A DNA stretch of 63,231 nt, the filler included, from Basidiobolus ranarum (lineage: Eukaryota), in NCBI GenBank assembly GCA_040143965.1. It is 25 parts of 25 records of this genome, joined end to end, with 100 filler letters (N's around TTAATTAATTAA, not from the genome) between each part and the next. Parts side by side here need not be neighbours in the genome. Positions count along the whole stretch, not along the records: positions 33,006 to 35,437 come from JASJQH010010220.1; positions 35,538 to 37,968 come from JASJQH010010221.1; 23 more parts are not named here. One strand, 5' to 3'. The notes under the pieces are model-generated. The model did no database searches and was not told the origin of the DNA. It saw nothing but the letters and a program-made list of their open reading frames with translations. Position 1 is the first letter of the stretch. Each line of letters opens with the position of its first letter. Below, one piece after another: positions 235-63,231 of the stretch. A program made the translations under genes and the position numbers.

Positions 235-520
235 GTATGTCTCTCTTCTTTATCCATTCATTCAAAAAATCTTTGCTTAAACGGCCAGTTCTTTTACAGT
301 AATCACAGAATCTGTTACTTCTCTTCTTTAAATTCTTTAGTCCTCTATAGGAAGGTTTCCTATAGCCTTTTAAAGCATTTTCTACTTTCTTTGGTTGCAT
401 CCTGCTTTGGATAAATCTTCAGATTTTTCTGAATTCTTCTGGTTGGATCCTAACTTACATAAATCTTGATCCAGAGGTCTGCCAAATATCTAATTCAATG
501 TCATAATTTTAGTTGTGGAT
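235..520 (-). mobile_element. Degenerate retroelement gag remnant
   Basis: Minus strand reads RFCDYCKRTGRLSKDF, a decayed CCHC zinc knuckle; the region is CpG-poor. Confidence 0.4.
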
Positions 521-530
521 TCTAGAGCCA

Positions 531-1940
531 CTACAAGATTATGAAACTTGTGTGGCAGGCTGTGCAAGACTGTAACTGTGATATCATGATCATTAGTAGG
601 TACTCAAATGAATTCGCAAACAAAAATAAAATTGATTTGATCTGGACTAGATCCACCTTTCTAAAGTGCAAAACCATCCAAGAACCATTGCAAAATTGGT
701 GGCTTACATTCTGCCAGCCATTTTGATGGTGTGATGGCAGTTTTGTGATAGTATTTTGATGGTATTCATACATGTTAAAATATTGATCCTCATATTTGGC
801 ATGTGGTATTAATATCCAGCAATTTTTGCAAAATTACAATTTTGAAATGGCATATTACTGGGTTTGCTGCTGTAGAAATTTGAATTAATATGCATGCCTT
901 TATTTAGATATTTTTGGCTTTGTATTGCAGCCATAATGAGAATCAAAAAAAGCAAGAATCTCATTGTGTTTAGTCTCTTTATATGCACATACTTGACTGA
1001 TCAGACATAACTCTACAACATCAATATGCTTTACCAGCAAACTAATGTTGGATAAATTGCTAAGCATCTGAGATTTTGAATAGTACTGACACTTGGCAAT
1101 TAGCCGACTCTTGTTGACATTCACTATGAGAATAAGCTCTTGGATTTTGGCAAATTTCTGTAAAGAATTCAGACAATATATGCCCAACTTGTAGTTAATA
1201 AATATCTTGCCACAAGTAGATGTGTCATTGCTTGAATTGATTACCCTATGGCTAAAACAATAATACACCATATCTCAATCTATTTCATCAAGAAGTCTGT
1301 CTTGCAGCTTTCCTAGATATACTCTCAGATTATTACACAAACAAATTAGTTGGAATAATGGAGGTAGTTACTCTATGTCCATAGATTGAGCTTTGTTGCT
1401 GTAAATGTGTTCAAACAATGTGAAAACCTATCAGCAAATTGTAAAGAGCCTTTTGTTGGAAGGTTAATATATTCTGGAGTCTCCTTAACTCATTGCATGA
1501 CTTCCATCGCTGATTTTGCTGATACATTCTTGCTCAGTTTAGCATTTGTTATTACTGGAAATTTCACATGAAGCATCAATTCACTACATGTGTGCTCCGT
1601 TGGGAACTCCCAGAATGTATAGCAAGGGCATATAATCTCTAAACATTGTGAAAGATGCAGCAGGGAATGTATTGAATACTGGCATGGATTCAGTCTATCT
1701 TCTTTAAACCTGTAATAAAGTTCTTCATATCCAATTACAAAATCTTGGTACAGTTGCTGTAACTGACTGAGATCTGCCAATATGGGTTGATGCCATAAGA
1801 ATATATTAACAATATCCACAAACAACTCTCATTGTTGCCAATATTTATCAGGCAGAAATCTTTTCAAATTCCGCTTGAATATATACAAATCCAATACTTC
1901 CAGTCTTTGCATTTGAATACATTCCTAGATGAGTGGATAT
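531..1940 (-). mobile_element. CACTA/En-Spm-like (Transposase_21/Tnp2) element, degenerate 3' part
   Basis: ORF 1490-1825 has IHSLLHLSQCLEIICPCYTFWEFPTEHTC, matching the Tnp2 HxxxHL...GP..xWxFPxER motif; homologous to 13050-14450. Confidence 0.75.
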
Positions 1941-2545: not shown

Positions 2546-4988
2546 TTATGCTGAATGAGGTAAATATACCAATAGAAGAAAATGTATCATCATAGTCAGT
2601 GCCATGTTTCTGAGCATAGCCTTTTACTACCAATCTTGCTTTGTACTGGTTGATAGATCCTTCTGAGTTAAGTTTCAGCTTCAGCACCCAGCTATTACCA
2701 TCAGTTTTTCTTGCAGTAGGTAAGTCCACAAGGATGCATGTGTTATTCTTGATTAGGGAGTGGATTTCATCATCAGTGGCTTTTCTCCAGTCTGTTGCTT
2801 CATCAGATTTCAGAGCTTGTGTCAAGTTTTCTGGTTCAAAAAATGTTATATGTGCAGATATATTCCACCCTTTTTCTAAATTGAAGCTTTTGATTGCATA
2901 CTGTGATTTGACACATCCAAAGTCCTTGGTATAATGGTCAGATGTTTCACTTACATGATGTTTCTGATTTCCACTTGGTAGGAATTCTGAGACCTGATTG
3001 CCTGAATTTATGATTGATGGCATACTTCCAATAATTGATTGCATCCAATATTAGCCAAATTGAGAGTAGGATATTTCTTAGATATGTGATTTGTCAGAAA
3101 ACTATTGTCTTCTTTCTGAGCCCAATTTCCTAACTCCTGATTGCCTGAGAAAATATCCTTTTTCTGATTACCATGTTTTTCATTGGCAGAGATAATATGC
3201 TGATATCCAGAAGCTGGTTCCAAATTATCAGTATCCTTAGAGTAATTATTAGGTTTGCTGTTATGAATTGGTGCATTTCCAGTGCCACCTAATGTTTCAC
3301 TACTTGTATAGTTGCTTGATTCCAGAATATCATATGATAGTTTGTTATCCCTGGTTTCAGTACTCATAGTGAAGTTTGAGATAGGATTATTGCCTGTTGG
3401 TTTTCTGATAGGAATATTCATCACAGGGATTGGTAATAATTTGAGCTTTGTCATATATTCATTAGTGGCTGATGTTTTAGACCTTGTCCTAGATGTGATA
3501 TTTTCTAAATTTGAATAATGTTGATAGATAGTTTCAGATTCCAAATTTGGCCTAATTCCAGTATCTATTTCCAATGTATCATTTTCCAAGTTGGTTTCAG
3601 TACTTATTAGCTCAAGATTGGTTTCAGAACTTGTTAACTCAGAATTTGAGTTATTAAGAAATTGATTTTCAGCCAAAATCAAATTTGCTTCATTAGAAGA
3701 TTTGAGATTTTCTTCAATGAATATAGTATTTCTGGAGTTGATGTTTTGATTTGTGCCAGCAATTAGGAGATGGTAGCCTTTGTTCTGAAATCCTAATAGG
3801 ATATAGTTAATTGCCTTTTTGTCCAATTTCCTATGCTGAGGTTTAGGAATATGAGCATATACTATTAATCCAAAAATTCTGAGATGATTCAGATTAGGCT
3901 TGTTTCAAGGCCAGATTTCAATAGAAGTTTTAGAGTCATGGTTGCTATGTGTTGGACTTCCATTTTGGAGATATGTAGCTGTTAAAATAGCTTCACCCCA
4001 ATAGGTCTTAGGCAGATCTGAATCAAGCAGCATTGTATTTGCTTTCTGTACTAAAGTCCTATTCATCCTTTCTACAATCCCATTTTGTTCTGCACTATAT
4101 GGAATAGTAAATTGCTGCTGAATTCCCTTTTCTTGACAAACACTAGTCATGGCTTCATTGTTAAATTCTGTTCCCTTATCACTGTATAAGTATTTGACTT
4201 TTCTTCCTGTGATGGTTGTGACTATTGCTTCATATATCTTAATATATTGAAACACTTCCCCTTTGCTCAACAGAAGTTATGAAACTATGATGTGAGATTT
4301 ATCATCAATATAGATGAGTAAATATTGTTGCTTACTTAATGTGAGAGTTTCTATTGGGCCACATAAGTGTGCATGAATAAGATTCAATAAATCCTTGGCT
4401 TTGCTAGCTCCTTTTTTGGAAATGGTTTTCTGGTGATTTTCCCTTGAATACAGATTTCACATTTAGTAATATCTGAGGGCTTAAGATCTATTCCAGTACA
4501 TAGGCTATTTTTATATAATAGTTTCACACTATTATAGCTTAGATGACCCAAGCTCTGATGCCAAGTCATCAAGTTTCCAGAAGTAATTGCTGTAAAGCTA
4601 GACACCATCTCAGTTATTGGTGCAATATCCAGGTGATATATATTCCCAGTTCTTGTTCCAGTTGTTACAATCAAGTCCTTTGATTTGTATATGGTTGCTT
4701 TTCCTTGGCTGAATTTGACATCCTAGTGTTTCTTTTCCATTGCTCCAATTGAAAACAGATTTGTTGTAAATGATGGAATATATAAGACATCTGCCAAGTT
4801 CACTATTACATTTTTGGTTTTACTTATTTGTAAGTCAAGTGTAACCTTCCCCATTTTATATGCAACCAGATTGTTTCTTCCAGCTACTGTGATGTCTAGA
4901 GGTTCTATTTCCTTATAGTCATGCATTATGTTTCTATTGTGACACATATGATCACTTGCACCAGAATCTAGAATCCATACATCAGCAG
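2546..4988 (-). mobile_element. Ty1/Copia pol, degenerate (protease, GAG-pre-integrase, integrase, RT)
   Basis: WILDSGASDHMC protease; WHQSLGH and CEICIQGK; integrase SDKGTEF...EQNGIVERMNRTL; RT YKARLVVKGYAQ. Integrase precedes RT (Copia order). Frameshifts present. Confidence 0.93.
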
Positions 4989-10173: not shown

Positions 10174-10741
10174 ACTTTATATCCTCTGTTATTGTCTTTA
10201 TGGCTGCCCTAATCTCTTTCTTGCTCCCCCCATTCCTCTTAATTTTGCTTTCCAGCATCTTGATATTTTTGTTCTTATTCAAGAGCAATTTAAGAAACAT
10301 TCTAACTTTGGTTCCAAATTGAAATTTGATCCTATTCCAACAAGCAGTGACTTTTTTTGCTACTTCATAAGAAGCTATCTGATGCGCATACTTCATGTTG
10401 ACTGGTTTGCAAGAGCAGCACTGAAAGTACTTATCCCAATACTTGATTGTTAGAACTTTGTAGGCTCTTGATTCTGTCAAAGCTTTCTATTTGCCTGGCT
10501 GGTAGATATCGAGGAGTGATATAAACAGACTTCTTTAAAAAAGTCAACATTAATGTAATCCTCCAAAGAAACTCAGAATTATTTTCCAGCTCATGATTAA
10601 AGATGAACTTCAAAAAGGAAAATGTATATGACACAAGGGTATGAATGTTAGCTACAAGTGACATGAGTTGTGGAACATATTGTTGCTTCTACTCAATACC
10701 AGCAATTGAGCTTTTGACTGATATAATATTTAGAAGTGATT
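10174..10741 (-). pseudogene. N-terminal fragment of a Fanzor1-like (TnpB-derived) transposon protein, degenerate
   Basis: IISVKSSIAGIE*K, IHTLVSYTFSFLKFIF, YINVDFFKEV and KYAHQIASYEVAKKVTACWNRIKFQFGTKVRMFL resemble, from recall, the N-terminal region of zygomycete Fanzor-type proteins. Contains a stop and frameshifts. Confidence 0.5.
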
Positions 10742-25403: not shown

Positions 25404-26426
25404 TGTGGGCTCTCGATAAAATGCTTTACTACCAAGACATGTTGCTAGATTGACTAGTCGCCATTTTCGACTTTGTAGATATTCTATCACTTTTTGAATT
25501 AATGGTATGGTATTGGGGTAGTTTTCGGGTCTAAAATCAGCGGTGGTATTCCACACATCATGGTTAAGTGATATAAATTTGCCTACACTTGAGTTGGTCC
25601 CTGCAGTTTGATCAATATATGCCTGGTATGTTTGTGCTATGGAATTGGCAGGGTTCCAATCCACAGGATCTACATTCCAATTTACGACCGTATAGCCCAT
25701 ACGTTTGAGTAGTTTCAATGAGGTATTGTCGGTACTCCCATAAGGTGGACGTAGGCAGGTTGGTACCTTCCCAAGTATAGTTGCAAATGCATTGTTCAGA
25801 CGAGTTATTTCATAGGTAATATTGTATTCATTGACAGTGATGAGATTGATGTGACTCCAGGTGTGAGAGCAAATCTGGTGACCAGTGTTATAGGCCTTCT
25901 TGACAACATCAGCGAGTTGATAGATGCTTAAGATAGGATTCTGAGTGTTGTAACTTTTCCAGTTTAATCCGTTCATAAAGAAAGTTGCTTTCACATTCTG
26001 AGAATTGAGATAATTCAACAGTCCAGAGGTGAGTACACTTGGGCCATCATCGTAAGTGACTGCAAATGTTCCAGGAACAGAGCAACCAGTATTTACTGTA
26101 GCCAAAGTGCCATCATCGCAAGAGCCATATTGTGATTGACAGCTCGTCCCACAGTGATCAGTGGTATATCCACAAAATCCATGCTCACTGCAGCATAGCC
26201 TTGAATCACATTATACAATTCCTTTACCACAAGTTTGATCCAAATGGCGTACCGTTGCTGTTCTTTGGGGTGTGTTTACAACATTAGTGATTGTTGCCAC
26301 ACTTTTTTCTAGACCAGGGTCTAAATTTGTCCGTGATATCAAGCCTACGTGGATATTGGAATGCTTACTAATGTTTGCGCGAATAGTTGAGCAGGTGATA
26401 AAAAGAAGTATTACTTTTGGTAACAT
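25404..26426 (-). pseudogene. Secreted chitin deacetylase (CBM18 + CE4/NodB) with one in-frame TAA at 26211-26213; 3'-partial
   Basis: Signal peptide; CBM18 reads CGKGIV*CDSRLCCSEHGFCGYTTDHCGTSCQSQYGSC; CE4 motifs TYDDGP, HTWSH, RPPYG, DW and LNHD are intact. Confidence 0.85.
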
Positions 26427-27252
26427 GAGTTGAGAAACTATTGACAAGGAGTGAAGTTGGAAAGTTCAACGATTAATAGATATGTTGACGGTATATATAT
26501 AGCTTATTAGTATCTGGTGAGCACGAATAATCCAATTTTAGTATCACTCCAGAGTCAGTAAGTTGAGTATTATTGTTGACAAAGTAAAATCTATTGAAAA
26601 AATACACTAGAGCTACTAAATCTACATAGATTCGATGTACGTTATAAATGAAAGAAATAGATGATAAACAAATGTAAATACTCAGCACAATCATTATCAT
26701 TTATAACTACCATCCCTTACTTCTAGTCACTTGTAAACTACATTTGTACGAAATGCCTTCAGTAGAAAGCACATTTTATTCGACCATATTCTCTTATATA
26801 TATATATTCATGCTTTATGAAATTGACAATAACCAAATATATATTAGATCCTTTTCTTACTGAATTGATGTCACTTCTTATTAGAGTGAGTTACATAATA
26901 AGCTCTAATAAATACGATGATTTTGTCAAATGTATTTCCGCTATCTACTCCGTTTTAGAACTTCTGGTCACTCTTTTCATGCCTTCGCAAATGCAATCGG
27001 TAGAGATTATGACACCAGCATTAGGAAAGTAAATTCGTATATACATTAAACCAAAAAATAACAACTAGCTTGAGGCCTGCCAACTGTTATTGCGAAATAA
27101 ATAATCGAAGAAAATATAGAATCACTCGCCAACAAAGAAACAATCTAAGAACATGGCTTCTTAGAAGAATATCACTGTACATACATCCAAGATATTTAAT
27201 AAATCGAAATAATTAACAGTATATTTCCTCTGCGATTCGACCAATCATGAAG

Positions 27253-27334
27253 GGTGAGATGGCCGAGTGGTCTAAGGCGCTGCGTTCAGGTCGCAGTCTC
27301 TTCGGAGGCGTGGGTTCGAACCCCACTCTCATCA
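27253..27334 (+). tRNA. tRNA-Leu(CAG)
   Basis: Acceptor GGTGAGA/TCTCATC, anticodon arm CTGCG-TTCAGGT-CGCAG, long variable arm, GGTTCGAACC T-loop, downstream T-run. Confidence 0.95.
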
Positions 27335-27938
27335 TCTTTTTATTGGAGTAGTTAGGGCTTTTTGTTCAGTTAAACGTACTCTCACTTGACGAGCGAAATG
27401 AGTAGGTAGTCATCTGTTAGACACCAATTTGTGATGAAAGCACTACATATTTCAGCTTACCGAACAGGAAATTGTTTTTATATAAAAAACTCGAATCTGT
27501 CCCGTATATAACAATTACGAAGTCTTGTGCTCAGTTATATTATTGTAGTATTGTCATAGTAGTAGTCAAAGCTTTTCTCTCTTATTTCAGTGACACTTTA
27601 GCTTTATCTATTGTAGTTTCCTTCGCTGATTTAGAAGAAAAAACTTCCCAGATTGGTACTAATAATATAGTGTTCTAGATACTTGACTTTTTACTCCCAT
27701 TAATTGATGCCTGATATTTCATTGAACTCAAAGGATTGGCTATGTATTCGTGATTGACATCATAATAAATGTTTGTGTTGAATTTATCGCACTTTCGGCT
27801 ATTAGGCAGGTTACGAAGTGTCCGCTGTATTTGATACTNNNNNNNNNNNNNNNNNNNNNNNNNNNNNNNNNNNNNNNNNNNNTTAATTAATTAANNNNNN
27901 NNNNNNNNNNNNNNNNNNNNNNNNNNNNNNNNNNNNNN

Positions 27939-28044
27939 AAAATGTATAAATGCTTAATTTCTGGTCAATAAATAATTATCTCACAAAGCTATTCACAACT
28001 CCACTTTTCTAAAGTTCCTCCAAACAGCCCATATTTTCCCAATA
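27939..28044 (+). mobile_element. 3' end of LTR-A
   Basis: Reverse complement of ~1945-2040 and 46956-47025; ends ...TTTTCCCAATA. Confidence 0.8.
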
Positions 28045-28953
28045 GTACTGGAAGGGAAGGGGTATAATCTTGTGACCTTCCATGGAATATGATCATAAGG
28101 CTACAATGTGACCTACCATGACTAACCACTGGAACATTACACAACAGCTGAATAATACTGATTGATATCTAGATAAATGATAACTGATTTTACTGATAAT
28201 ACTGATTATTGCATAACTTAACTAATACTTGAGCTGCTATGAATAGCAAATCAGAACAGTACTATGCAACCCCCAAGTAGCTTTAGGTATAGTGAGGAAT
28301 GCCTGTCTAAAGTTAATGGAGAGCATGTTAGCAACAATTCAACATGTGTTTAGTTATCTTTCATATCTCGCAATCAGTTATTTGTTGTAAAATCGAGGCA
28401 TTAGTGCAAGGGGAACTCTTCGATGTTAGAGCATTTTATTTGTAACATTAAGAATTAGCCAAGCATACTTGAAAGTCATCTTGATCCTAGTAATGAATAA
28501 TCTAAGACTCCGACCAACATCAATTAACCCTTTTTGTAGATCAACTCTCATACCATTCAACTCTCCTACCATACCCAGGGGGGTTATCCAAATCGGCATA
28601 GCTGGTGTCTTCCCACCCCACACTAATAATGATGCATGTTGAAGATTCAAACTAGTTTGAGATTCGATTTTCTATTGGAATTAGATTGATGGCATTGGAG
28701 GAGCTAATATGTTACAACTAGCGAATACTTCACGACAGGATAGTTGTACTACTAAATAGTATCGATCTCATGCAGTTGTTTCTTACATATGAACTCAATT
28801 AGCGTAAAATATGGGCCATGTTTAGTAGTTACTTTACAGCCTATATGGCGATTTATTTATAATCTAGGGGTACATTGAGTAACTATTCAACTGAAAAGCT
28901 CAGCGAAAATCGAGTGAATGAATGAATTAATGATGAGACAAAATAACTAAAAC

Positions 28954-30373
28954 TTATAATTCATCGTGCTCAGGAACCTCCTCACCACCAGCGGCTCCAG
29001 CATCACTGTAAAGCTTGCTGGTAATAGGGTTAACAATAGCTTCGACTTCAGCCTTTTGTTCTTCAATATCTTCCTTGGTAGCAGAAGCAACATGTTCTTC
29101 GAGCCATTCAGTCTTGGCCTTGATAACACTCAAGATTTGTTCCTTATCTTCAGCAGAAATCTTACCACCGAGTTGGGTCTCATCAGAAACTTGGTTCTTC
29201 AAGGTGTACAAGAAGTTCTCGAAACCATTCTTGGCTTCGATACGCTCCTTCAATACTTTGTCTTCATCAGCGAATTCCTCAGCTTCACGAACCATACGTT
29301 CAATTTCTTCTTCGGAGAGACGAGATTTGTCGTTAGAGATGGTGATGGACTCAGACTTTCCGGTACCCTTATCGGCAGCGGAGACCTTGAGGATACCATT
29401 AGCATCGAGTTCGAAAGTAACTTCAATTTGGGGAACTCCACGAGCAGCTGGGGGAATACCAGTCAACTCGAATTTACCGAGGTGGTTGTTATCCTTGGTC
29501 AAAGGACGTTCACCTTCGAATACTTGGATCAAGACAGCGGGTTGGTTATCAACAGCGGTAGAGAAGATTTGAGTCTTCTTGGTGGGGACGGCAGTGTTAC
29601 GGGGGATGAGCTTGGTCATGACTCCACCGGTGGTTTCAATACCAAGGGTAAGAGGGTTAACATCCAAAACCAAAAGATCTTCACTACCAGCTTCACCAGA
29701 TAAGATACCAGCTTGAACAGCGGCACCGAAAGCAACAGCTTCATCAGGATTGATACCCTTGGAGGCCTTCTTTCCATCAAAGAAATCTTCAAGAAGCTTA
29801 ACAACCTTGGGGATACGAGTAGAACCACCAACAAGGACAACATCGTGAATATCGGACTTACTGAGACCAGCATCCTTGAGGACTTGTTCAACAGGCTTGA
29901 TAGTCTTCTTGAAAAGATCGTTGTTCAATTCTTCGAACTTGGCACGGGTAAGAGTTTCAGAGAAATCTTCACCAGCGTGGAAAGCTTCAATTTCAACACG
30001 AACGGACATTTGGGAAGAAAGAGTACGCTTAGCCTTTTCGACTTCACGCTTGAGTTTACCCATGGCCTTCAAATCCTTGGTAACATCCTTCTTGGTCTTC
30101 TTGCGGTACAACTTGGCGAAATAGTCAATAACACGGTTATCGAAATCTTCACCACCCAAATGGGTATCACCGGATGTGGCAAGAACTTCGAAAACACCAT
30201 CATCAATGGAAAGAAGGGAAACATCGAAGGTACCACCACCCAAGTCATAGACTAAGATATGGGTTTCACCTTGGGTCTTATCAAGACCATAAGCAATAGC
30301 GGCAGCGGTAGGTTCGGAGATAATACGGAGGACGGTAAGACCGGCAATAGTACCAGCATCCTTGGTGGCTTGA
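28954..30373 (-). CDS. KAR2: ER Hsp70 BiP, 5'-partial
   Basis: QATKDAG...[13 protein letters not shown]...[11 protein letters not shown]...[15 protein letters not shown] with C-terminal HDEL followed by TAA. Confidence 0.98.
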
Positions 30374-31940: not shown

Positions 31941-34900
31941 TATATGTTTTGAAGTGATATATTGCAACTTTCGATACTACTATCACTTATACGGAGCGAT
32001 ATATTGGTAATACCTGCAATTCGGATTTCTATTCATATATTTGTATTTGTGCGTATTCTATGAGTTACTCTAAATGTCAGCGCAACAGTAAAGCAACTAT
32101 GCTAATGACAGTATTGTTTTCACTATTTTACCCTTATTATACTGAGGAAAAAGTATCTTGTAATACACGTATGTGGTAAATAGAAATATTCTTTTATTTA
32201 CGGTTAATGAATAGAGCTGATGACAGCTAATATTGTCGGTGAACCTATGACAACCCTCGATAAGTTAAACAACCATAATATTATATCCGAATATGTATAA
32301 GCGTCAAATTGATAGAAATTCATCAATATCCGACACAAATCGCATTGTTCAAGCACAGATCATTGATCGAAAGCAGAAATGATTGAACTGAAGCTTATGA
32401 AGCATAGTCGATTAATTGTATTTACTATTTTGATCAGTAGTCACTATGTAAATACTGATAAAGGGAGCAGTCAGATTTTTAGGTCTAATGAATTCCAATT
32501 TAGAAGCATTCTTCTTTTTAAACTTCTGTAATTAAGGAACGTTACCAACTCAGCTGACAATACTGAAGGAACAACAATCCATCTATTCATAGTTATAATT
32601 CGGACATACTGCCTATTTCTGAACAATCTCTAATCAGGAGAGAAAGTCATGATTTTATGATACAAATATCGAAGAGATACCCCATTAGTAGCTGTTCCGA
32701 CCGCTGGGAGTAAAAACTCACGGGCATGACCACAGCTATAACCCTATTTTCAAGGTCCCAGAGGATATTAGTAAGTGAGCATAGTCTGCATAAACCAATT
32801 AGGGACAGTACTAGCCCTAAGGACCCATTAAAGATGGAAAAAGAAATTTTAGCCTGCATAGATGGTCACTTGTGGACTCGATTTGGGCATTGGCGGTCAT
32901 GTTTGNNNNNNNNNNNNNNNNNNNNNNNNNNNNNNNNNNNNNNNNNNNNTTAATTAATTAANNNNNNNNNNNNNNNNNNNNNNNNNNNNNNNNNNNNNNN
33001 NNNNNAAACAATGTATTTATGGAAGATTGGCATCCAGCACACACCAAATGTAGATGAAATCCGGTGTGATTGAGGAGGTGTCAATGCTGATTTTCAAAAG
33101 TGAGATACATGGGGCTGAGGATAGTCACTAACACTAAATGTCTTTTTCATCGAGGTATAACTGATGTCTTATGTGGTGGCTTCTCTGCCTGAAGTCGCAG
33201 CACTAATGCCGCTTACCATGATGAGCATGCGATGGAAAAGAAGAGATAGAAACTCAATCGTCTTTTCATGTCTGAGGTTCACGTACTAGTAGAGCATACT
33301 CACTCTGGCTCATCATCACTAATCTAAGATACGTAACAGGTTACACGAATATTTGGAGAATGCAGGCGTTACAATGGTGTCAAGGTGCTTGGGCTGTATT
33401 CGGATTCGATTTCGGACTAGTCCAGTCGATGCCATATCTGTATCAGTTCATAATTCTAATATGGTGATTATGGGTCTTGATTGGTTTAGCAGAAGGGGCC
33501 AATGGTTGCACCAACTACGTGCAGCTTCATATTCTACAAGAGCAATGCTCCCCCACCCTTCTACCCATCATTTGAATGGAGGGAAAATCATTCTTGTAGG
33601 AATACATACCTATGCTTTACAAAACCAATATCCGGCGGTAATATTTACTTCCGAGCGAGGGTTTTCCATCTCTTATGAAGGCTTGGAACTGCTTTCCTTC
33701 TCATAGAGCGAACTGGTTATTATTCTCATTGAACTCTGGCTTGTGAGGGAGGCTGTGGATTCAAGCTAATGGCACAGTTAATTGAATTCGCGCGTAGCTG
33801 TTGATCTAGGAATGGTAAAAGTGCAGAATAATAGATATTCTGCTCAAATAAAACATTGTCATCGGTTATCTCTGTTACATAGGGACCTCTTCCATACCAT
33901 CACTGGCGCTTAAATACGAGGTTTTCAATCAGAAAATCACCCTAAGGAGTGCTGTGTTAAAGTACTAGAATTGAAATATCCTCGTAGAGAAATTTATCAC
34001 ACAACGAATAGGAGTGATATTATCGATCTTGGTAATATCATAATTTATACAAATTGACAACAAAGTTAATTTGGATGATCGCAACTGTTTCGTTGAGTTA
34101 GTGACGGAGTTCAAATATACTTTCAACACAAATCAGTGACCATATGTATAGAAAATCCTTCTGGTAGTGATAGGTTTGCGATATCTACGAATGTTTCTTG
34201 ATGCTTCCAATAGATATTTGATAAGAATTTTGCAAAAAAGTGCTAGGAGAATTACATATCGAATACTGACATTCTTTGTGTTCAACTATCTTTCTGCCAA
34301 TATAAATATTAGCGCATACTCTGGTAATAGATGATAATATTCGAATGTATTTCCACCAAACCTATAGCAGGAAATTGCTGTGATGTTGGAAATGATTTTT
34401 CTAGCTTAAACTTTCTTAAGTATACATTGATCGTTCCTGTTATTCTATTATTGAAAATAAGAGGCTTCGTACCCGCAAAAAGCTAGTTGTCTAGTTAAGG
34501 CTAGTTAATGATAGAATGGCTATCTTGAACCTAAAATATATTTCACCAAGTGATGTTTTTGATCTCGGAGTTCATGCCGCTAGTAACTTATACTTCATGT
34601 AACTCCTTAGTAATACAACTAGGCATTTGGAGATGCATTGCTGGATGTTTACACGCTTTGTCATGGATGTAATATAGTTCTCTGATATCATACTATTTCA
34701 TACATTTAAGCTACATTTGGTCCAGTAGTACTTAATCCAATAGGGAGGTTATGGCACTGTCCAAATGAAAATTAGATTAGACTACTTAATACGAAGTTTC
34801 ACCCTAGCTTGGGCGGTCATATCTATATAGCCAATACCACTTTAGGAATTTAATAACTAGCGTTAGAGAACTTTGTGATATCCTAAGCTAATCATGAGAA

Positions 34901-35074
34901 TCGATCCATCACATACACCGTTTCTTATATTTACGTATGAACCGGCTTGAATATTGTTCTCATTGATACAATTCGGAACATGTGGCCGAACTGAGGAACT
35001 CTTTATTAGTCAAGCAAAATACAATGCTCGCTAATATTCTCCTCTCGGTTTGCTTCTCTACTCAATAAACCTAG

Positions 35075-35374
35075 ACTACATTCTGATCAAGAATTAGTTA
35101 ACAGTTTGAAGAGGAAATTCGGAGAAAATGCTGTTTTAGTATTAGGTGACTGGTCATCTGCGAATGTGAAATTTCATGAGTCAATTAGAGGGAAAGGAAT
35201 ACGACGTATGCTGCGAAAATCAGGGTTCAAAGTTCTGTTGTTGAACGAACTCCACACTTCAAGTTTTTGTCCCGAATGTGAGCTCTCAGAATTGGAAAAA
35301 TTCAAAACTATTCCAAACCCAAGAGTTTTTAGAAGAAAGAAGATGGCAACTTTAAAATGCCATGGTCTTTTAAG
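35075..35374 (+). CDS. Fanzor1-like (TnpB-derived) nuclease exon: RuvC-II and start of zinc finger
   Basis: SDQELVNSLKRKFGENAVLVLGDWS...KGIRRMLRKSGFKVLLLNELHTSSFCPEC...CHGLLR. Preceded by CTAG and followed by a GT...CTAAT...TAG intron (35375-35437). Confidence 0.75.
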
Positions 35375-35709
35375 GTACTGTCCGAGATACAAAAAGAGAG
35401 AAAAGAAAATGAAAGCTAATATTTTTTCGTCAAATAGNNNNNNNNNNNNNNNNNNNNNNNNNNNNNNNNNNNNNNNNNNNNTTAATTAATTAANNNNNNN
35501 NNNNNNNNNNNNNNNNNNNNNNNNNNNNNNNNNNNNNTTGAATGTGCAATAATGTCTAAAAGTACTTTTCTCAAATATACCACATAAGTAAAATAAACTG
35601 TTTCCAAAACGGTAAATAACATCATGCCGGATAGTGCCCAATCATGCCAATTTGTGCTGGCACACTTCTTAGCTGGCCTGATCTGGCTCAATAAAATGGA
35701 ACAAGTCTA

Positions 35710-37968: not shown

Positions 37969-39723
37969 NNNNNNNNNNNNNNNNNNNNNNNNNNNNNNNN
38001 NNNNNNNNNNNNTTAATTAATTAANNNNNNNNNNNNNNNNNNNNNNNNNNNNNNNNNNNNNNNNNNNNCTTCTTCGCATGTGGCGACTGCAATGATACTG
38101 AATATAACTCATCTCATTCCAGAATAGCCGCAGCCACTCACACTGAGAGAATGTGGGACATGGTGACATATCCTTGAAGATACGCGTAACTGTTGCTCGA
38201 GCCCTTGGTCCGGTATTTGACTCATTTACCCGATTATCGGAACTCGCTAATTAATGAATGTGGGAAAAGAGGGAATAAGGATGTTAAAGTTCAAAGTCTA
38301 TGATTTACATGCTTCCATTGGTTCTCAAATAGACAAGTGATTGATTTGTGCTACATTGTACAAGAGGGAACTGAGAGGAGTTCATTGGATGCCTTTTATG
38401 CAGATGATTTCATGTTACCTATTGGTTCTAAATTAGTCATTTCAGGGAATGTTGTGGGGTTCAACATAGGATGATTCGATAATGAACAGTTCCATACTTT
38501 CACTCTGACTTCGTTGAAGAGTAATGATGAAGTGTGTATTAACACTCGTGCGCGTAGTATTGCTCAGTACTACGTAATATTCTCTAACCTTCAAGACTTA
38601 AGATCATCGTTAGGACATCGTAGCCGTCAAGCCACGGTAATGCTGGTAAACGCCAGGAATATGCTGATACCTGAATAAGTTACAGTTTTAGAGCAATGGT
38701 TCAGGTGCTGATCAGTATATTCAAGTCATATTCTCAATAAAATGGCCCAGAGTCGGTTCAGGCAACAAATGCAATGTACCCAAAGGGTTCGTACCCAAAT
38801 AGTACGACAATGAGAGATAGTTATGGATACAATATTCGTGTTAGTTCCCCAAATATTATTTTTGTATCTCATATGTGTAACTTGATAGCTGCCTGGCTTC
38901 ATCCTGATTAGATGGGGGTTACTGGTTTCCACAGCGACCCTTCAACGACGACCCTGAACACTTTCGGGGATTTCTAACAATATATGGCAATTCCATGAGG
39001 TATCACAAGAGTCACTCTCCATCAGGAATATGTCGACACTACGCGTACTTGCACACGTACACTTCGATATGAGATAACGAGGTGCCCCATATTCATAACA
39101 CATTCACATGAAGCCGTTAAAGTACTATATGCACGATCTGAAATGCTAAAAGATCTTGTCGACCCTTCAGCCACCTTAGTTTGGAAGTGAAACTTGGCTA
39201 TCCATAGCTGATAAAAGATAGCTTCCCTAGTAACTATATTGAAATATTATTAATTGGCCATATCAAACTCAACTTTCCACAGTTTACATGTGATGGGATG
39301 ATTGAACCCCTAGTACATTGGATCGACGTTTACCGGCCCAATTGTTAACTTTTTTCATGGCGGTTACATTTCTATGCTTGTCAACAAGCTAATCTTGCTA
39401 TTTGAATGTTATTAAAGACAATTTGAATTCTAGATAGACAAGGTCTTTTTAATGATGATTGCTTTCTAAAATGATCATAAATGCTCAGAAGGATGGGCTA
39501 TATACATTCTGAAACTCGCGGAGGAATGAATGGTAGATTTTTGTTAAATACTGCACCAAAGCGAACAGGAAAGGCTCCCGCAAATGCTTTAAGAAGTACA
39601 TAAAAATAATCTAGGTTTTGCTTGTTCCACAGAAAGAATAAAAATAAAATGCTATATATAAAAGTGAATAGATTGAATGTTATCTACGGATCTACCGCCA
39701 TTCAACAATGCTTGGGAATGTAG

Positions 39724-40498
39724 TTAAATGGCGATAGAGGTGGCAGTTTGCGCAAGTGTCAAGACGTGGGTATGCTCGATGTGGTATTTGAGCCCATTAA
39801 GGTTCTTATAGCTCTTGCCACAATCAGGGTATGAACACTTGTATGGCTTGATGGTGGGTTTGGATCCGTCGCCATTGGAGCAGTGGCCATGGAGTTTATG
39901 GTACTTCAATCCATTAGCATTCTTATACGATTTTTCACATCCAGGAACTGGGCACTTGTAGGGCTTCTCTGCAGGTGTGGGCTTAATTTCAACATGGTCT
40001 ACTGGAGCGATACCAGCAGCAGCATGGAGGAGATCATCAACACCAGTAACAAAGTCGGGGGAATAAATTGAAGGGATTCCGGTAAAAAGCTCTTCCTCAG
40101 TAAAAGTTTGTGAAAGACTGTTGACATCAAGAACATAAGAAGGTGCAATTTTTTTGGCAGGACCTGAAATTGCTTCAGAAGCCATACGCTTGTTGGAAGG
40201 CTGGACGGCTCTTAAAACAGAGTTGTCAAATGCAGAGGCAAAGGCCTCGTTTTGCAAAAGAGACTCTTCAGCGTACACATCATTCAGAGATACAACATCA
40301 CTTGTGTAATCTCCGACAAGGCCAGGATCAGAGATAGGGGAGGATGGAGCAGTGATACCAGAGTCACTGGAGTTTGACCAGTCATCTTCCTGATATATAC
40401 CTTGGGCGTCGTCAGTTTCAAAACGAACATGGCACTCTTCGAAGTGTTGAAGTAAATCATGAAGGTCTTCTAAAACTATACCACAGCATGAGAAATCT
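39724..40498 (-). CDS. SFP1: Sfp1/JAZF1-like C2H2 zinc-finger transcription factor, 5'-partial
   Basis: One open frame from DFSCCGIVLEDLHDLLQHFEECH to KPYKCPVPGCEKSYKNANGLKYH and CGKSYKNLNGLKYH. Confidence 0.85.
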
Positions 40499-60808: not shown

Positions 60809-62990
60809 GAACAAGATGGTTTTGGGACTAAATTTTGTAATTCCACCAGATCTGGAGCTATGTAAAGGTTGCCTATATGGTAGGCAACACAGACAGCCAT
60901 TTGTGGGCTCTGGAATGAGCAAAATTGATCAAAAATTGGGCCTGATACACTCAGATCTGTGTGGCCCAATGCAGGCAAATTCCTAAGGCAGGAAAAGGTA
61001 TTTTCTGACCTTTAATGATGATAAGACAAAGTACACTTTGGTGTACTCTCTGGCCAGTGAGGATGAAGCCTTTGATACCTTCAAGAAGTTCAAGGTAATG
61101 GTCGAGACTGAAACAGGTCTAAAGATTAAGATTATCCATACTGATAATAGAGGGGAATACACCTCAAAACTTTTCTCTAACTTCTGCCCAACACATGGGA
61201 TAAAACAGCAGACTACAGTGCCATACTCTCCACAGCAGAATGGAGTAGCAGAATGTGCAAACAGATCAATAATAGAAAAGGCAAGATCAATGCTTCATGA
61301 TCAAGATTTAGCAAAAGAGTTCTGTGCTGAATTGGTTGCAACTGAAGTATATATTAGGAATAGATGTCCTTCTAGGTCTCCATTGGCTATGACACCTTAT
61401 CAAGCTTGGTTTAGAAGTAAATCTGATGTGGCAAATCTCAGAGTTTTTGCAAGTATTGCATATGCAATGATTCCAGACCAGAAGAGATCAAAATTAGACC
61501 AGAAAAGCCAGAAATGTCTTTTTTTAGGATATTGTGATGGAACAAGAGGGTACCAGCTATGTGATACTAAAAATAAGAGGCTAATCATATCAAGGGATGT
61601 GGAATTTGCTGAAGAAGAAAAATTTTCAATCAAAACAATCCAGGATCAAGAAAAACAACCAAAAATTGATGAGATTCTACTTTTTCTCACCAGATCCTGA
61701 TCAGTGAGAAAAACATTGAAAATTCCTCACCTGCAGTCTCCTCAACCAAGCCTGAGGTGGTTTCATTGCCTAAATTGGTACCAGAAGTTGTAGTGCCAAT
61801 TTCCCATCTTAGGAGATCCAATTGGATGAGATCTCTGCCTGATTACTACTCTCACACTAGCCAAAAGGAGCCTAGTGCTAATTTAGCCTTTTCTGATGAA
61901 CCCAAATCAGTACAGGAGGCTATGGAGAGTCCCAACACAAAGTTTTGGAGTGCTGCAATGGCAGAGGAGTATCAGTCACTCATAGATAACCAAACTTGGA
62001 CTTTGGTTAAGTTACCTGATGACCAATTATCAATCGGATGCAAATGGGTGTTTAAAGTTAAACAGCAAGCTGATGGATCTGTAGAGAGATATAAAGCCAG
62101 ACTTGTGGCTAAAGGATACTCTCAAATGGAAGGAGTGGACTACAATGAAACTTTTGCTCCTGTAGCAAAGTTTAATTCCATCAGAACCATACTAGCAGTA
62201 GCAGCAAAACACAGCTTAAAAATCCATCAAATGGATGTCAAAACTGCTATTTTGAATGGGGACTTAGAAAAGGATATAATCATGGATTAATGAAATGGTT
62301 TTGTGGATCCTGAGCACCCAGAGGATGTGTGTAAGCTACAAAAAGAATTTATGGACTTAAACCATCACCCAGGGCCTGGTACACTACAATAGGCACATAC
62401 TTCAAATTACTTGATTTCCAAAAGAGTACAGTGGATTTTGGGAACTACTTGAAGACAGATAAAGACAATAAGATGATACTTGCTTTATATGTTGATCATC
62501 TGATTATAGCTACCAATAATGATGAAGCTCTCAGGAACACCAAAAGAGATCTATCAGACCAATTAAAAATGACCAATTTAGGTGAACTTATGTATTTTTT
62601 GGGCCTGTAGATCCATACAGATATATTGAGCAAATCTGTCACTCTGAATCAATCTAAATACATCTCAGACATTCTCAGACATTACAGGATGAAGAATTGT
62701 AAGCCAGTAGCAACTCCCCTGGAACCCGGTGTCAAATTAGTCAAAAATCCCATCAAAAAAAAATGAAAATCGGCCAAATATGGCTCAAAACATGTCATTT
62801 GAAAGCCCTGAGTTCCCTTATCAATCTATGATGGGTAGTTTGGTCTATGGTATGACTGGAACCTGGCCAGATATCTCTTTTGCAGTGGGAGTAGTCAGCC
62901 AGTATGTGCAAAACCCAGGATCTGAGCATTATGCAGTGGTTAAGTGGATTTTCAGATATTTGAAGAGGACAATTGATATAGGATTAAGAC
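60809..62990 (+). mobile_element. Ty1/Copia pol (integrase and RT), degenerate
   Basis: IHSDLCGPM, TDNRGEY, PQQNGVAE, LRVFAS, WVFKVK...RYKARLVAKGYSQMEGVDYNETFAPV and HQMDVKTA. Confidence 0.95.
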
Positions 62991-63024
62991 AAACATATTC
63001 TTATGAGAATAAGGATCTAATTGA

Positions 63025-63231
63025 TGAAATTAGCATTGCCTAAACACCTATATAGTCATATATAGCTTGGTACTTGGCTATCTTATAATTCACTAAGATA
63101 TTATCAATTATTATCAATCAGAATTTACTTAGAATATTTTTACCAACTTAGAAGTTCTCAGATATATAGATTTTTCAAACTTGTGCTAGAAGCCCCAAGC
63201 TTTGCACACATGTTCCTGGGACCTTCCTTAA
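63025..63231 (+). mobile_element. Family B core plus start of right arm
   Basis: Matches 9775-9960; 63176-63231 equals arm 10999-11054. Confidence 0.7.

Follow-up and report, generated by a model that had tools for sequence, protein, structure and literature searches.

A Fanzor1-derived coding exon, probably of a 5´-truncated copy, at the end of a short contig of Basidiobolus ranarum

Positions 35075 to 35374 on the plus strand of the Basidiobolus ranarum sequence analysed here hold a Fanzor1 coding exon of about 100 codons. This segment is probably the second-to-last coding exon of a Mucorales-type Fanzor1 gene, in a copy that is incomplete and most likely truncated at its 5´ side. Judged by its sequence, the exon derives from a family that is already known, biochemically characterised and transposon-borne. 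Fanzor1 is a eukaryotic, transposon-borne descendant of TnpB. Fanzors, which are of interest as compact genome editors, are to our knowledge the only eukaryotic RNA-guided DNA nucleases.

The whole stretch of DNA that was analysed, which is referred to as the window, has 63,231 bases. It is composed of 25 contigs of 2,423–2,445 bases each, which are arranged in decreasing size order and joined by N44-TTAATTAATTAA-N44 spacers, and it is not a single locus. Because the contigs are concatenated, features that adjoin across different contigs are treated as unlinked. The assembly is very fragmented, with window contigs of ~2.4 kb, and the Fanzor exon sits at the right-hand end of the contig at 33006–35437, directly before the N spacers that start at 35438. 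The elements listed in the original prediction, namely CTAAT with a pyrimidine tract and CTAG, the stop-free 300 nt, the RuvC-II signature, the AG|GT junction and a 63-nt stretch with CTAAT...TAG, were all found where they had been placed.

Results

Relationship of the exon to Fanzor1

A phmmer search of the PDB places the similarity of the exon to Fanzor1 far above chance. Query residues 4–104 match PpFz1 (PDB 9cf0) with E=1e-32 and 115.5 bits, and SpuFz1 of Spizellomyces punctatus (PDB 8gkh) is matched with E=7e-18 and 67.8 bits. A family profile composed of the exon segment and 18 homologues yields E values of 7e-79 for PpFz1, 8e-43 for SpuFz1 and 1.9e-5 for GtFz1 of Guillardia, and retrieves no TnpB or Cas12 chain from the PDB at E≤1. 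These matches confirm the Fanzor identity that had been proposed. In Pfam, the Cas12f1-like TNB family PF07282 reaches 15.2 bits (E=0.024), which is below its curated cut-off of 26.3. A second family, PF26935, is a precomputed annotation on homologues from a collection of 5.8 billion clusters, and a scan of three such homologues against the Pfam copy used here did not return it.

The exon has many relatives. A search of 1.84 billion cluster representatives matched 997 proteins at E≤0.001, of which 304 reached E≤1e-10, and the top identity was 61%; the top match in the 5.8-billion-cluster collection is a Rhizopus microsporus protein with 62% identity. No protein near-identical to the exon was found in either collection, and the lineage of the exon therefore appears to be unsampled, 62% being the best identity in both. 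All of the best-matching named relatives belong to the Mucorales (Rhizopus microsporus, R. arrhizus, Mucor flavus, Cokeromyces recurvatus and Helicostylum pulchrum). Fanzor1 genes of Rhizopus, Mucor, Cokeromyces and Helicostylum are 51–62% identical to the exon, and Coemansia proteins are more distant matches. An uncharacterised family of RNA-guided nucleases, as had been envisaged, is contradicted by this placement, since the nearest relatives with a name are Mucorales Fanzor1 proteins of the ordinary kind, a group to which the characterised PpFz1 belongs. By sequence, what is new is the unsampled lineage; the family itself is already known.

The exon covers the RuvC-II glutamate and half of the zinc ribbon

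The exon is supported by phmmer against the PDB, by a profile of 114 homologues alone and by conserved columns. It takes in the helix that precedes RuvC-II, the motifs GDWS and HESIRGKG, the RuvC-II glutamate and, as far as CHGLL-R, the first half of the TNB zinc ribbon. The codon register is set from 35073, with no stop through 35374. The frame is actually open beyond the 300 nt, running for 142 codons from 35010 to the contig end behind a TAG stop at 35007–35009.

The RuvC-II/zinc-ribbon signature NELHTSSFCPEC occupies 35244–35279. Within this signature, the GAA codon of the RuvC-II catalytic glutamate (35247–35249, plus strand) stands in LLN-E-LHTSS, at a column that is E in 94% of 158 homologues. 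The first CxxC of the zinc ribbon is formed by CPEC (35268–35279, plus strand), whose C, P and C columns are 92–97% conserved in the same homologues. Taken over the E, T, S, C, P and C columns of the signature, conservation is 91–97%, and all six residues are kept in the window. The CHGLL-R motif is located at 35358–35375 (plus strand); its C, H, G, L and L columns are 84–95% conserved, and its R codon is split as AG|G. The RuvC-II/zinc-finger signature read in the original prediction thus corresponds to a RuvC-II glutamate and the first half of a TNB zinc ribbon.

Of the 41 columns with a conservation of 70% or more in 80 or more homologues, the exon carries the consensus residue in 36, among them the RuvC-II Glu, TS, CPxC, NPR and CHGLL. 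It departs from the consensus at S50, S58, V106, A113 and L115, and at three of these five positions a proline is conserved. The median over the 116 homologues that span the 41 columns is 35 matches; with 36, the segment is therefore without decay.

A putative splice donor after CHGLL-R

The exon is followed by a probable phase-2 spliceosomal intron, GTACTG...GCTAAT...TAG, at 35375–35437 (plus strand), whose donor is shared by relatives. The junction AAG|GTACTG at 35374|35375 cuts the Arg codon after its second base. Together with CTAAT at 35416–35420, the TAG at 35435–35437 delimits a putative intron of 63 nt, and this proposed acceptor forms the final three bases of the contig. Both the RuvC-III exon and the omega RNA would lie past position 35437, where the contig stops. 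On the other window contigs, a C-terminal profile searching for the RuvC-III exon had a best match of only E=6.6. Acquisition of spliceosomal introns by Fanzor genes is described in published work (PMC10530073).

The boundary was surveyed in 159 retrieved homologues, 91 of which bear xHGLL by a simple pattern. Forty-five of these 91 proteins go on as CHGLLxC to N[RK]D within 70 residues. Nine stop exactly at CHGLLR or CHGILR, which fits AG|GTAA read in frame as R followed by a stop, and ten read through the boundary as R/K-Y, so that ends or read-through are observed in 19 of the 91. The full-length models P0002, P0003, P0006 and P0007 run on as R/K-Y and then end, as expected from AG|GTA read through. 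In P0017, another read-through model, RCTNRKC...LWNRD resumes after 18 extra residues, which implies an in-frame intron of 54 nt. The Mucor flavus protein P0005 continues as CHGLLR-CKNIAC...RMWNRDLAAALNF (CKNIAC...WNRDLAAALNF), which comprises the second half of the zinc ribbon and RuvC-III. Among 168 phmmer alignments, 90 end at query residues 121–124.

A metagenome scan with a 7-sequence alignment retrieved two loci, L001 and L002, and both have AG|GT at the same codon and in the same phase. The donor context is GTA AG|GTAAGT in L001, which is decayed, with a frameshift and RHVLV where CHGLL is expected. In L002 the context is CTG AG|GTAATT, and the Fanzor relic stops there. No RuvC-III exon was found downstream of the donor within about 900 and 1150 nt in these two loci. 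Being decayed or truncated and without a RuvC-III exon, the two loci support the position of the donor and not a downstream exon.

By its position, the GT at 35375 is well supported as a putative splice donor at a phase-2 exon boundary that recurs in Mucorales-type Fanzor1 genes. The 3´ phase-2 boundary of the original prediction is upheld in this form, as a donor position found again in both DNA relatives and in 19 of 91 homologues, at which splicing is predicted. A recurrent phase-2 intron after CHGLL-R would also explain the database models that end in CHGLLR or run on as "RY..".

Both metagenomic loci contain further sequence behind the donor. In L001, an open frame of 264 codons (445–1239, plus strand) lies directly after, and in the same frame as, the stop made by the GTAAGT donor; its best Pfam match, Elongin_A with E=0.012, is below the cut-off and not significant. 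L002 (1–1242) carries an N-terminal exon of ATP synthase beta (ATP-synt_ab_N, E=2.5e-18) about 800 nt downstream of the donor, and its Fanzor piece is a 3´-truncated relic beside a host gene.

An acceptor-like signal meets the onset of homology

An acceptor-like signal, read directly from the sequence, is located at 35031–35074 (plus strand) at the 5´ side of the exon. It comprises CTAAT at 35031–35035, a 71% pyrimidine stretch at 35036–35070 and CTAG at 35071–35074. A profile of 114 homologues, from which the window sequence was left out, aligns the window frame from residue 23, corresponding to 35076, and detectable homology begins 1–4 nt past CTAG. Branch-tract-YAG signals of comparable quality number about 0.34 per kb per strand across the window, a rate based on criteria that were set after the site was seen. 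At this rate, the meeting of the signal with the onset of homology is a notable coincidence. The signal is either the 3´ end of a lineage-specific or relic intron or a chance occurrence at the point of truncation.

Between the upstream stop and the end of the signal, an in-frame open stretch of 21 codons (35010–35074, plus strand) shows no demonstrable Fanzor homology. Inclusion of these codons leaves the profile score flat (71.1 vs 71.8 bits), with 166 of 200 shuffles at least equal. The summed Smith-Waterman score against 114 homologous upstream segments has z=0.26, which 97 of 300 shuffles equal or exceed, and an ungapped PSSM of the conserved P-L-F-R-K-L-R-L-S gives no match (1119 of 2000 shuffles at least equal). 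A contrary sign comes from the pairwise phmmer alignments, 63 of 168 of which start inside the stretch, at 35043–35070; the alignments of SpuFz1 and of a Coemansia homologue start there as well. With profile, Smith-Waterman and PSSM tests at chance level, the reading of the 5´ "intron" as Fanzor coding sequence was rejected as unproven.

Further upstream, at 33006–35072, no Fanzor exon was found on either strand by tblastn with six homologues, by a 5-sequence full-length HMM with filters off, or by an HMM built from 114 sequences of the neighbouring conserved FRKLKLS region. Coding sequence for the RuvC-I aspartate, WED and REC is absent from these 2.07 kb of the contig. At the 5´ site, the sequence runs on unbroken in L001, in SpuFz1, in PpFz1 and in every full-length model of Mucor, Rhizopus and Coemansia. 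The 5´ intron is unproven: an acceptor-like signal is present, and an upstream Fanzor exon was not found in the 2.07 kb. Of the 5´ intron claimed originally, the signal thus remains, and the missing upstream exon and the continuity of the relatives speak against the rest. The accompanying statement that Fanzor-like sequence is lacking upstream holds for the contig at 33006–35437 by tblastn and profiles, and a decayed N-terminal fragment lies on another contig (see below). The suggestion of a truncated copy is consistent with the missing upstream coding sequence.

Two observations argue against a plain truncation. The acceptor-like signal, at its rate of about 0.34 per kb per strand, falls within 1–4 nt of the homology onset, and 100 codons are retained without any decay. 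The coincidence of signal and homology fits a real exon boundary, with the upstream exon located across a long intron or an insertion. The gene could accordingly be intact, with only its 3´ part on this contig and with 35031–35074 as a real lineage-specific acceptor; its upstream exons would then be more than 2 kb away, behind a long or insertion-bearing intron, or the exon would have been misjoined by the assembler. The exact fit of the signal to the start of homology, the branch-like GCTAATATT ahead of both exon flanks and the undecayed, CpG-normal exon agree with such a gene. Nevertheless, we consider it unlikely, because Fanzor homology is absent from 2.07 kb upstream on both strands, L001, the full-length models, SpuFz1 and PpFz1 are continuous across the site, and the only measurable intron of the family, that of P0017, has 54 nt. 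We infer truncation rather than a very long intron.

The sequence GCTAATATT occurs five times in the window, compared with 1.0 expected (1 of 100 shuffles reaches 5). The sites are 35030–35038 and 35415–35423 on the plus strand, 32226 on the plus strand, and 3047 and 34305 on the minus strand. Two copies are located 15–40 nt before the YAGs that flank the Fanzor exon, in a 23-nt direct repeat that is 78% identical. This sequence may be a preferred branch-site context of the organism.

The database models P0014, P0077 and P0159 have unrelated sequence just upstream of the same helix (..D..LV..L.KFG), where homology starts in the window. They may be prediction artefacts on decayed copies, or they may mark a recurrent boundary.

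CpG content and a second, decayed Fanzor1 fragment

The exon contains 7 CpG compared with 9.8 expected (observed/expected 0.72), and the whole contig at 33006–35437 has a ratio of 0.74 that is uniform across the 5´ junction. The window contigs are bimodal in this respect. Twelve of the 25 have CpG observed/expected ratios of 0.0–0.23 with an excess of TpG/CpA, and the other 13 have ratios of 0.53–0.83. The CpG-poor contigs at 2546–4988 and 60809–63231 encode Ty1/copia reverse transcriptase and integrase. The CpG-normal contigs include those with Hsp70 (27939–30373), a chitin-binding polysaccharide deacetylase (25404–27838) and a C2H2 protein (38069–40498). This bimodal distribution fits a methylation-linked decay of CpG that is confined to repeats. 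At contig ratios of 0.05–0.23, as in CpG-poor contigs, the Poisson probability of seven or more CpG in the exon is 9e-7 to 0.008. That the exon, at 0.72, retains CpG was also recognised in the original prediction, and the comparison with the 12 CpG-poor, TE-like contigs (0.0–0.23) bears this out.

A second Fanzor1-derived fragment is located on the minus strand at 10193–10740, on the contig at 10174–12613. It corresponds to the N-terminal REC region (HMM positions 37–200, E=2e-19) and runs off the left end of its contig. The fragment is decayed, with a TAG at a conserved Trp, more in-frame stops and two frame changes. It has 2 CpG compared with 16.6 expected (0.12), and the remainder of its contig has a ratio of 0.62. 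Because one genome thus holds an undecayed, CpG-normal piece and a depleted, frameshifted piece, a CpG-depleting process of the host is suggested to act on Fanzor elements, and undecayed copies may exist elsewhere in the assembly. The open frame, the family-typical conservation and the host-like CpG of the exon suggest that it was separated from a working copy, probably recently, or that it resides in unmethylated single-copy DNA.

The contig that carries the exon

The part of the contig upstream of the open frame (33006–35009, no strand assigned) is CpG-normal (observed/expected 0.73), and coding content was not recognised in it. Of the ORFs of at least 55 aa on this contig, all eight lack a Pfam match better than E=0.03, and none is a transposase by the same scan. 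A homologue search with the 127-aa ORF was empty, and an Rfam scan of the contig gave 0 matches. The sole inverted pair on the contig, of 18 nt and 89% identity (33043–33060 and 34704–34721), lies away from the Fanzor boundary. No repeats or sequence overlap are shared between this contig and the other 24 window contigs.

These data bear on two other explanations of the 5´ boundary. The first is an assembly artefact, in which unique DNA was joined to the edge of a multi-copy Fanzor element, so that the boundary would not be biological. For a 2.4-kb contig of a very fragmented assembly, misassembly is possible. The 25 window contigs are all about this short, the contig ends inside the element, as happens where repeats break assemblies, and only 61 kb hold at least two Fanzor-derived pieces. 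However, the junction falls on a well-formed acceptor-like signal, the CpG ratio is uniform through it, and sequence overlap with the other window contigs is missing. We therefore regard a chimera as improbable.

The second explanation is a captured exon, namely a RuvC-II/TNB exon that became part of a host transcript by exonisation or fusion and is spliced to non-Fanzor exons upstream. It would account for the host-like CpG over the whole contig (0.74) and for the intact frame with splice-like signals in the same phase at both flanks, and a few models, e.g. P0014 and P0077, have unrelated sequence just upstream of the same helix. A simpler explanation of these odd models is that they are artefacts of gene prediction on decayed copies. 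Upstream coding evidence is also absent, as the results for the eight ORFs and for the 127-aa ORF illustrate, and we know of no independent function for a lone RuvC-II with half a zinc ribbon. Such a capture appears highly improbable.

Discussion

The preferred reading remains an incomplete, most likely 5´-truncated copy of a Mucorales-type Fanzor1. In the literature on the family, Fanzor1 is described as an omega-RNA-guided DNA endonuclease with one RuvC site, which is formed by an Asp on β2, a Glu and an Asp/Asn on a later helix, and the catalytic Glu is assigned to the loop that links the fifth β-strand to the TNB domain (PMC11423790). In an intact copy, the protein would bind an omega RNA for which the 3´ end of the element serves as template, and this RNA would guide it to a target beside a short TAM motif, where both DNA strands would be cut by the single split RuvC site (Asp, Glu, Asp/Asn). 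To such a protein, the present exon would contribute no more than the RuvC-II glutamate and the initial CxxC of its zinc ribbon. It would end at the phase-2 intron that splits the zinc ribbon, and the contig stops within or at the end of that intron. Some 600 upstream codons, encoding REC, WED and RuvC-I, would be missing, with the locus truncated near 35075; alternatively, the incomplete copy could have been broken inside a lineage-specific intron, the 3´ end of which survives. Since RuvC-I, WED and REC are absent, the locus as assembled should not be able to cut DNA by itself; from its domain content, both guide binding and cutting would be lacking. For the same reason, we file it as a Fanzor1-derived fragment and not as a nuclease gene.

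A more far-reaching reading is that the exon comes from a Fanzor1 lineage that is live, has introns and belongs to an unsampled clade of fungi, and that this lineage was spared the CpG-depleting silencing to which the retrotransposons and the other Fanzor copy were subjected. In a second form of this reading, a host transcript would have taken up the exon by way of the acceptor at 35074. The closest protein among 15 billion is 62% identical to the exon. We give this reading only a slim chance.

The locus alone adds little, since the family to which this single exon belongs is abundant in Mucorales and one of its members has already been solved and tested biochemically. New active Fanzor lineages would be of some value as compact genome editors.

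Comparison with known systems

The best solved match to the exon is PpFz1 of Parasitella parasitica (PDB 9cf0–9cf3). According to the report on this protein, its structure was solved and it performs RNA-guided DNA cleavage in vitro with a 5´-ATN TAM (Xu et al. 2024, PMC11423790). PpFz1 and the exon have a common order of motifs, namely GxWS, the RuvC-II Glu followed by TSS, CPxC, NPR and CHGLLR, after which PpFz1 has C. The residue before the catalytic E is N in the window compared with D in PpFz1, and the N variant is also present in four of six aligned homologues. The exon accounts for only about 100 of the roughly 890 residues of PpFz1; the REC, WED, RuvC-I, FRI insertion, RuvC-III and omega RNA of that system are not on the window contig.

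Among the Mucorales homologues, Rhizopus microsporus RHIMIDRAFT_283552 and Mucor flavus MFLAVUS_010728 are 59–62% identical over the exon and share the CHGLL(R/K) boundary. The Mucorales Fanzor1 homologues are full-length loci of 726–757 aa, in contrast with the single exon described here. SpuFz1 has the same RuvC-II/TNB layout and is more distant than PpFz1 (67.8 vs 115.5 bits); it differs by small insertions around the zinc ribbon and by a V that replaces the C of CHGLL. The bacterial TnpB and Cas12f TNB (PF07282) share the ExxTS...CxxC layout with the exon at a sub-threshold match.
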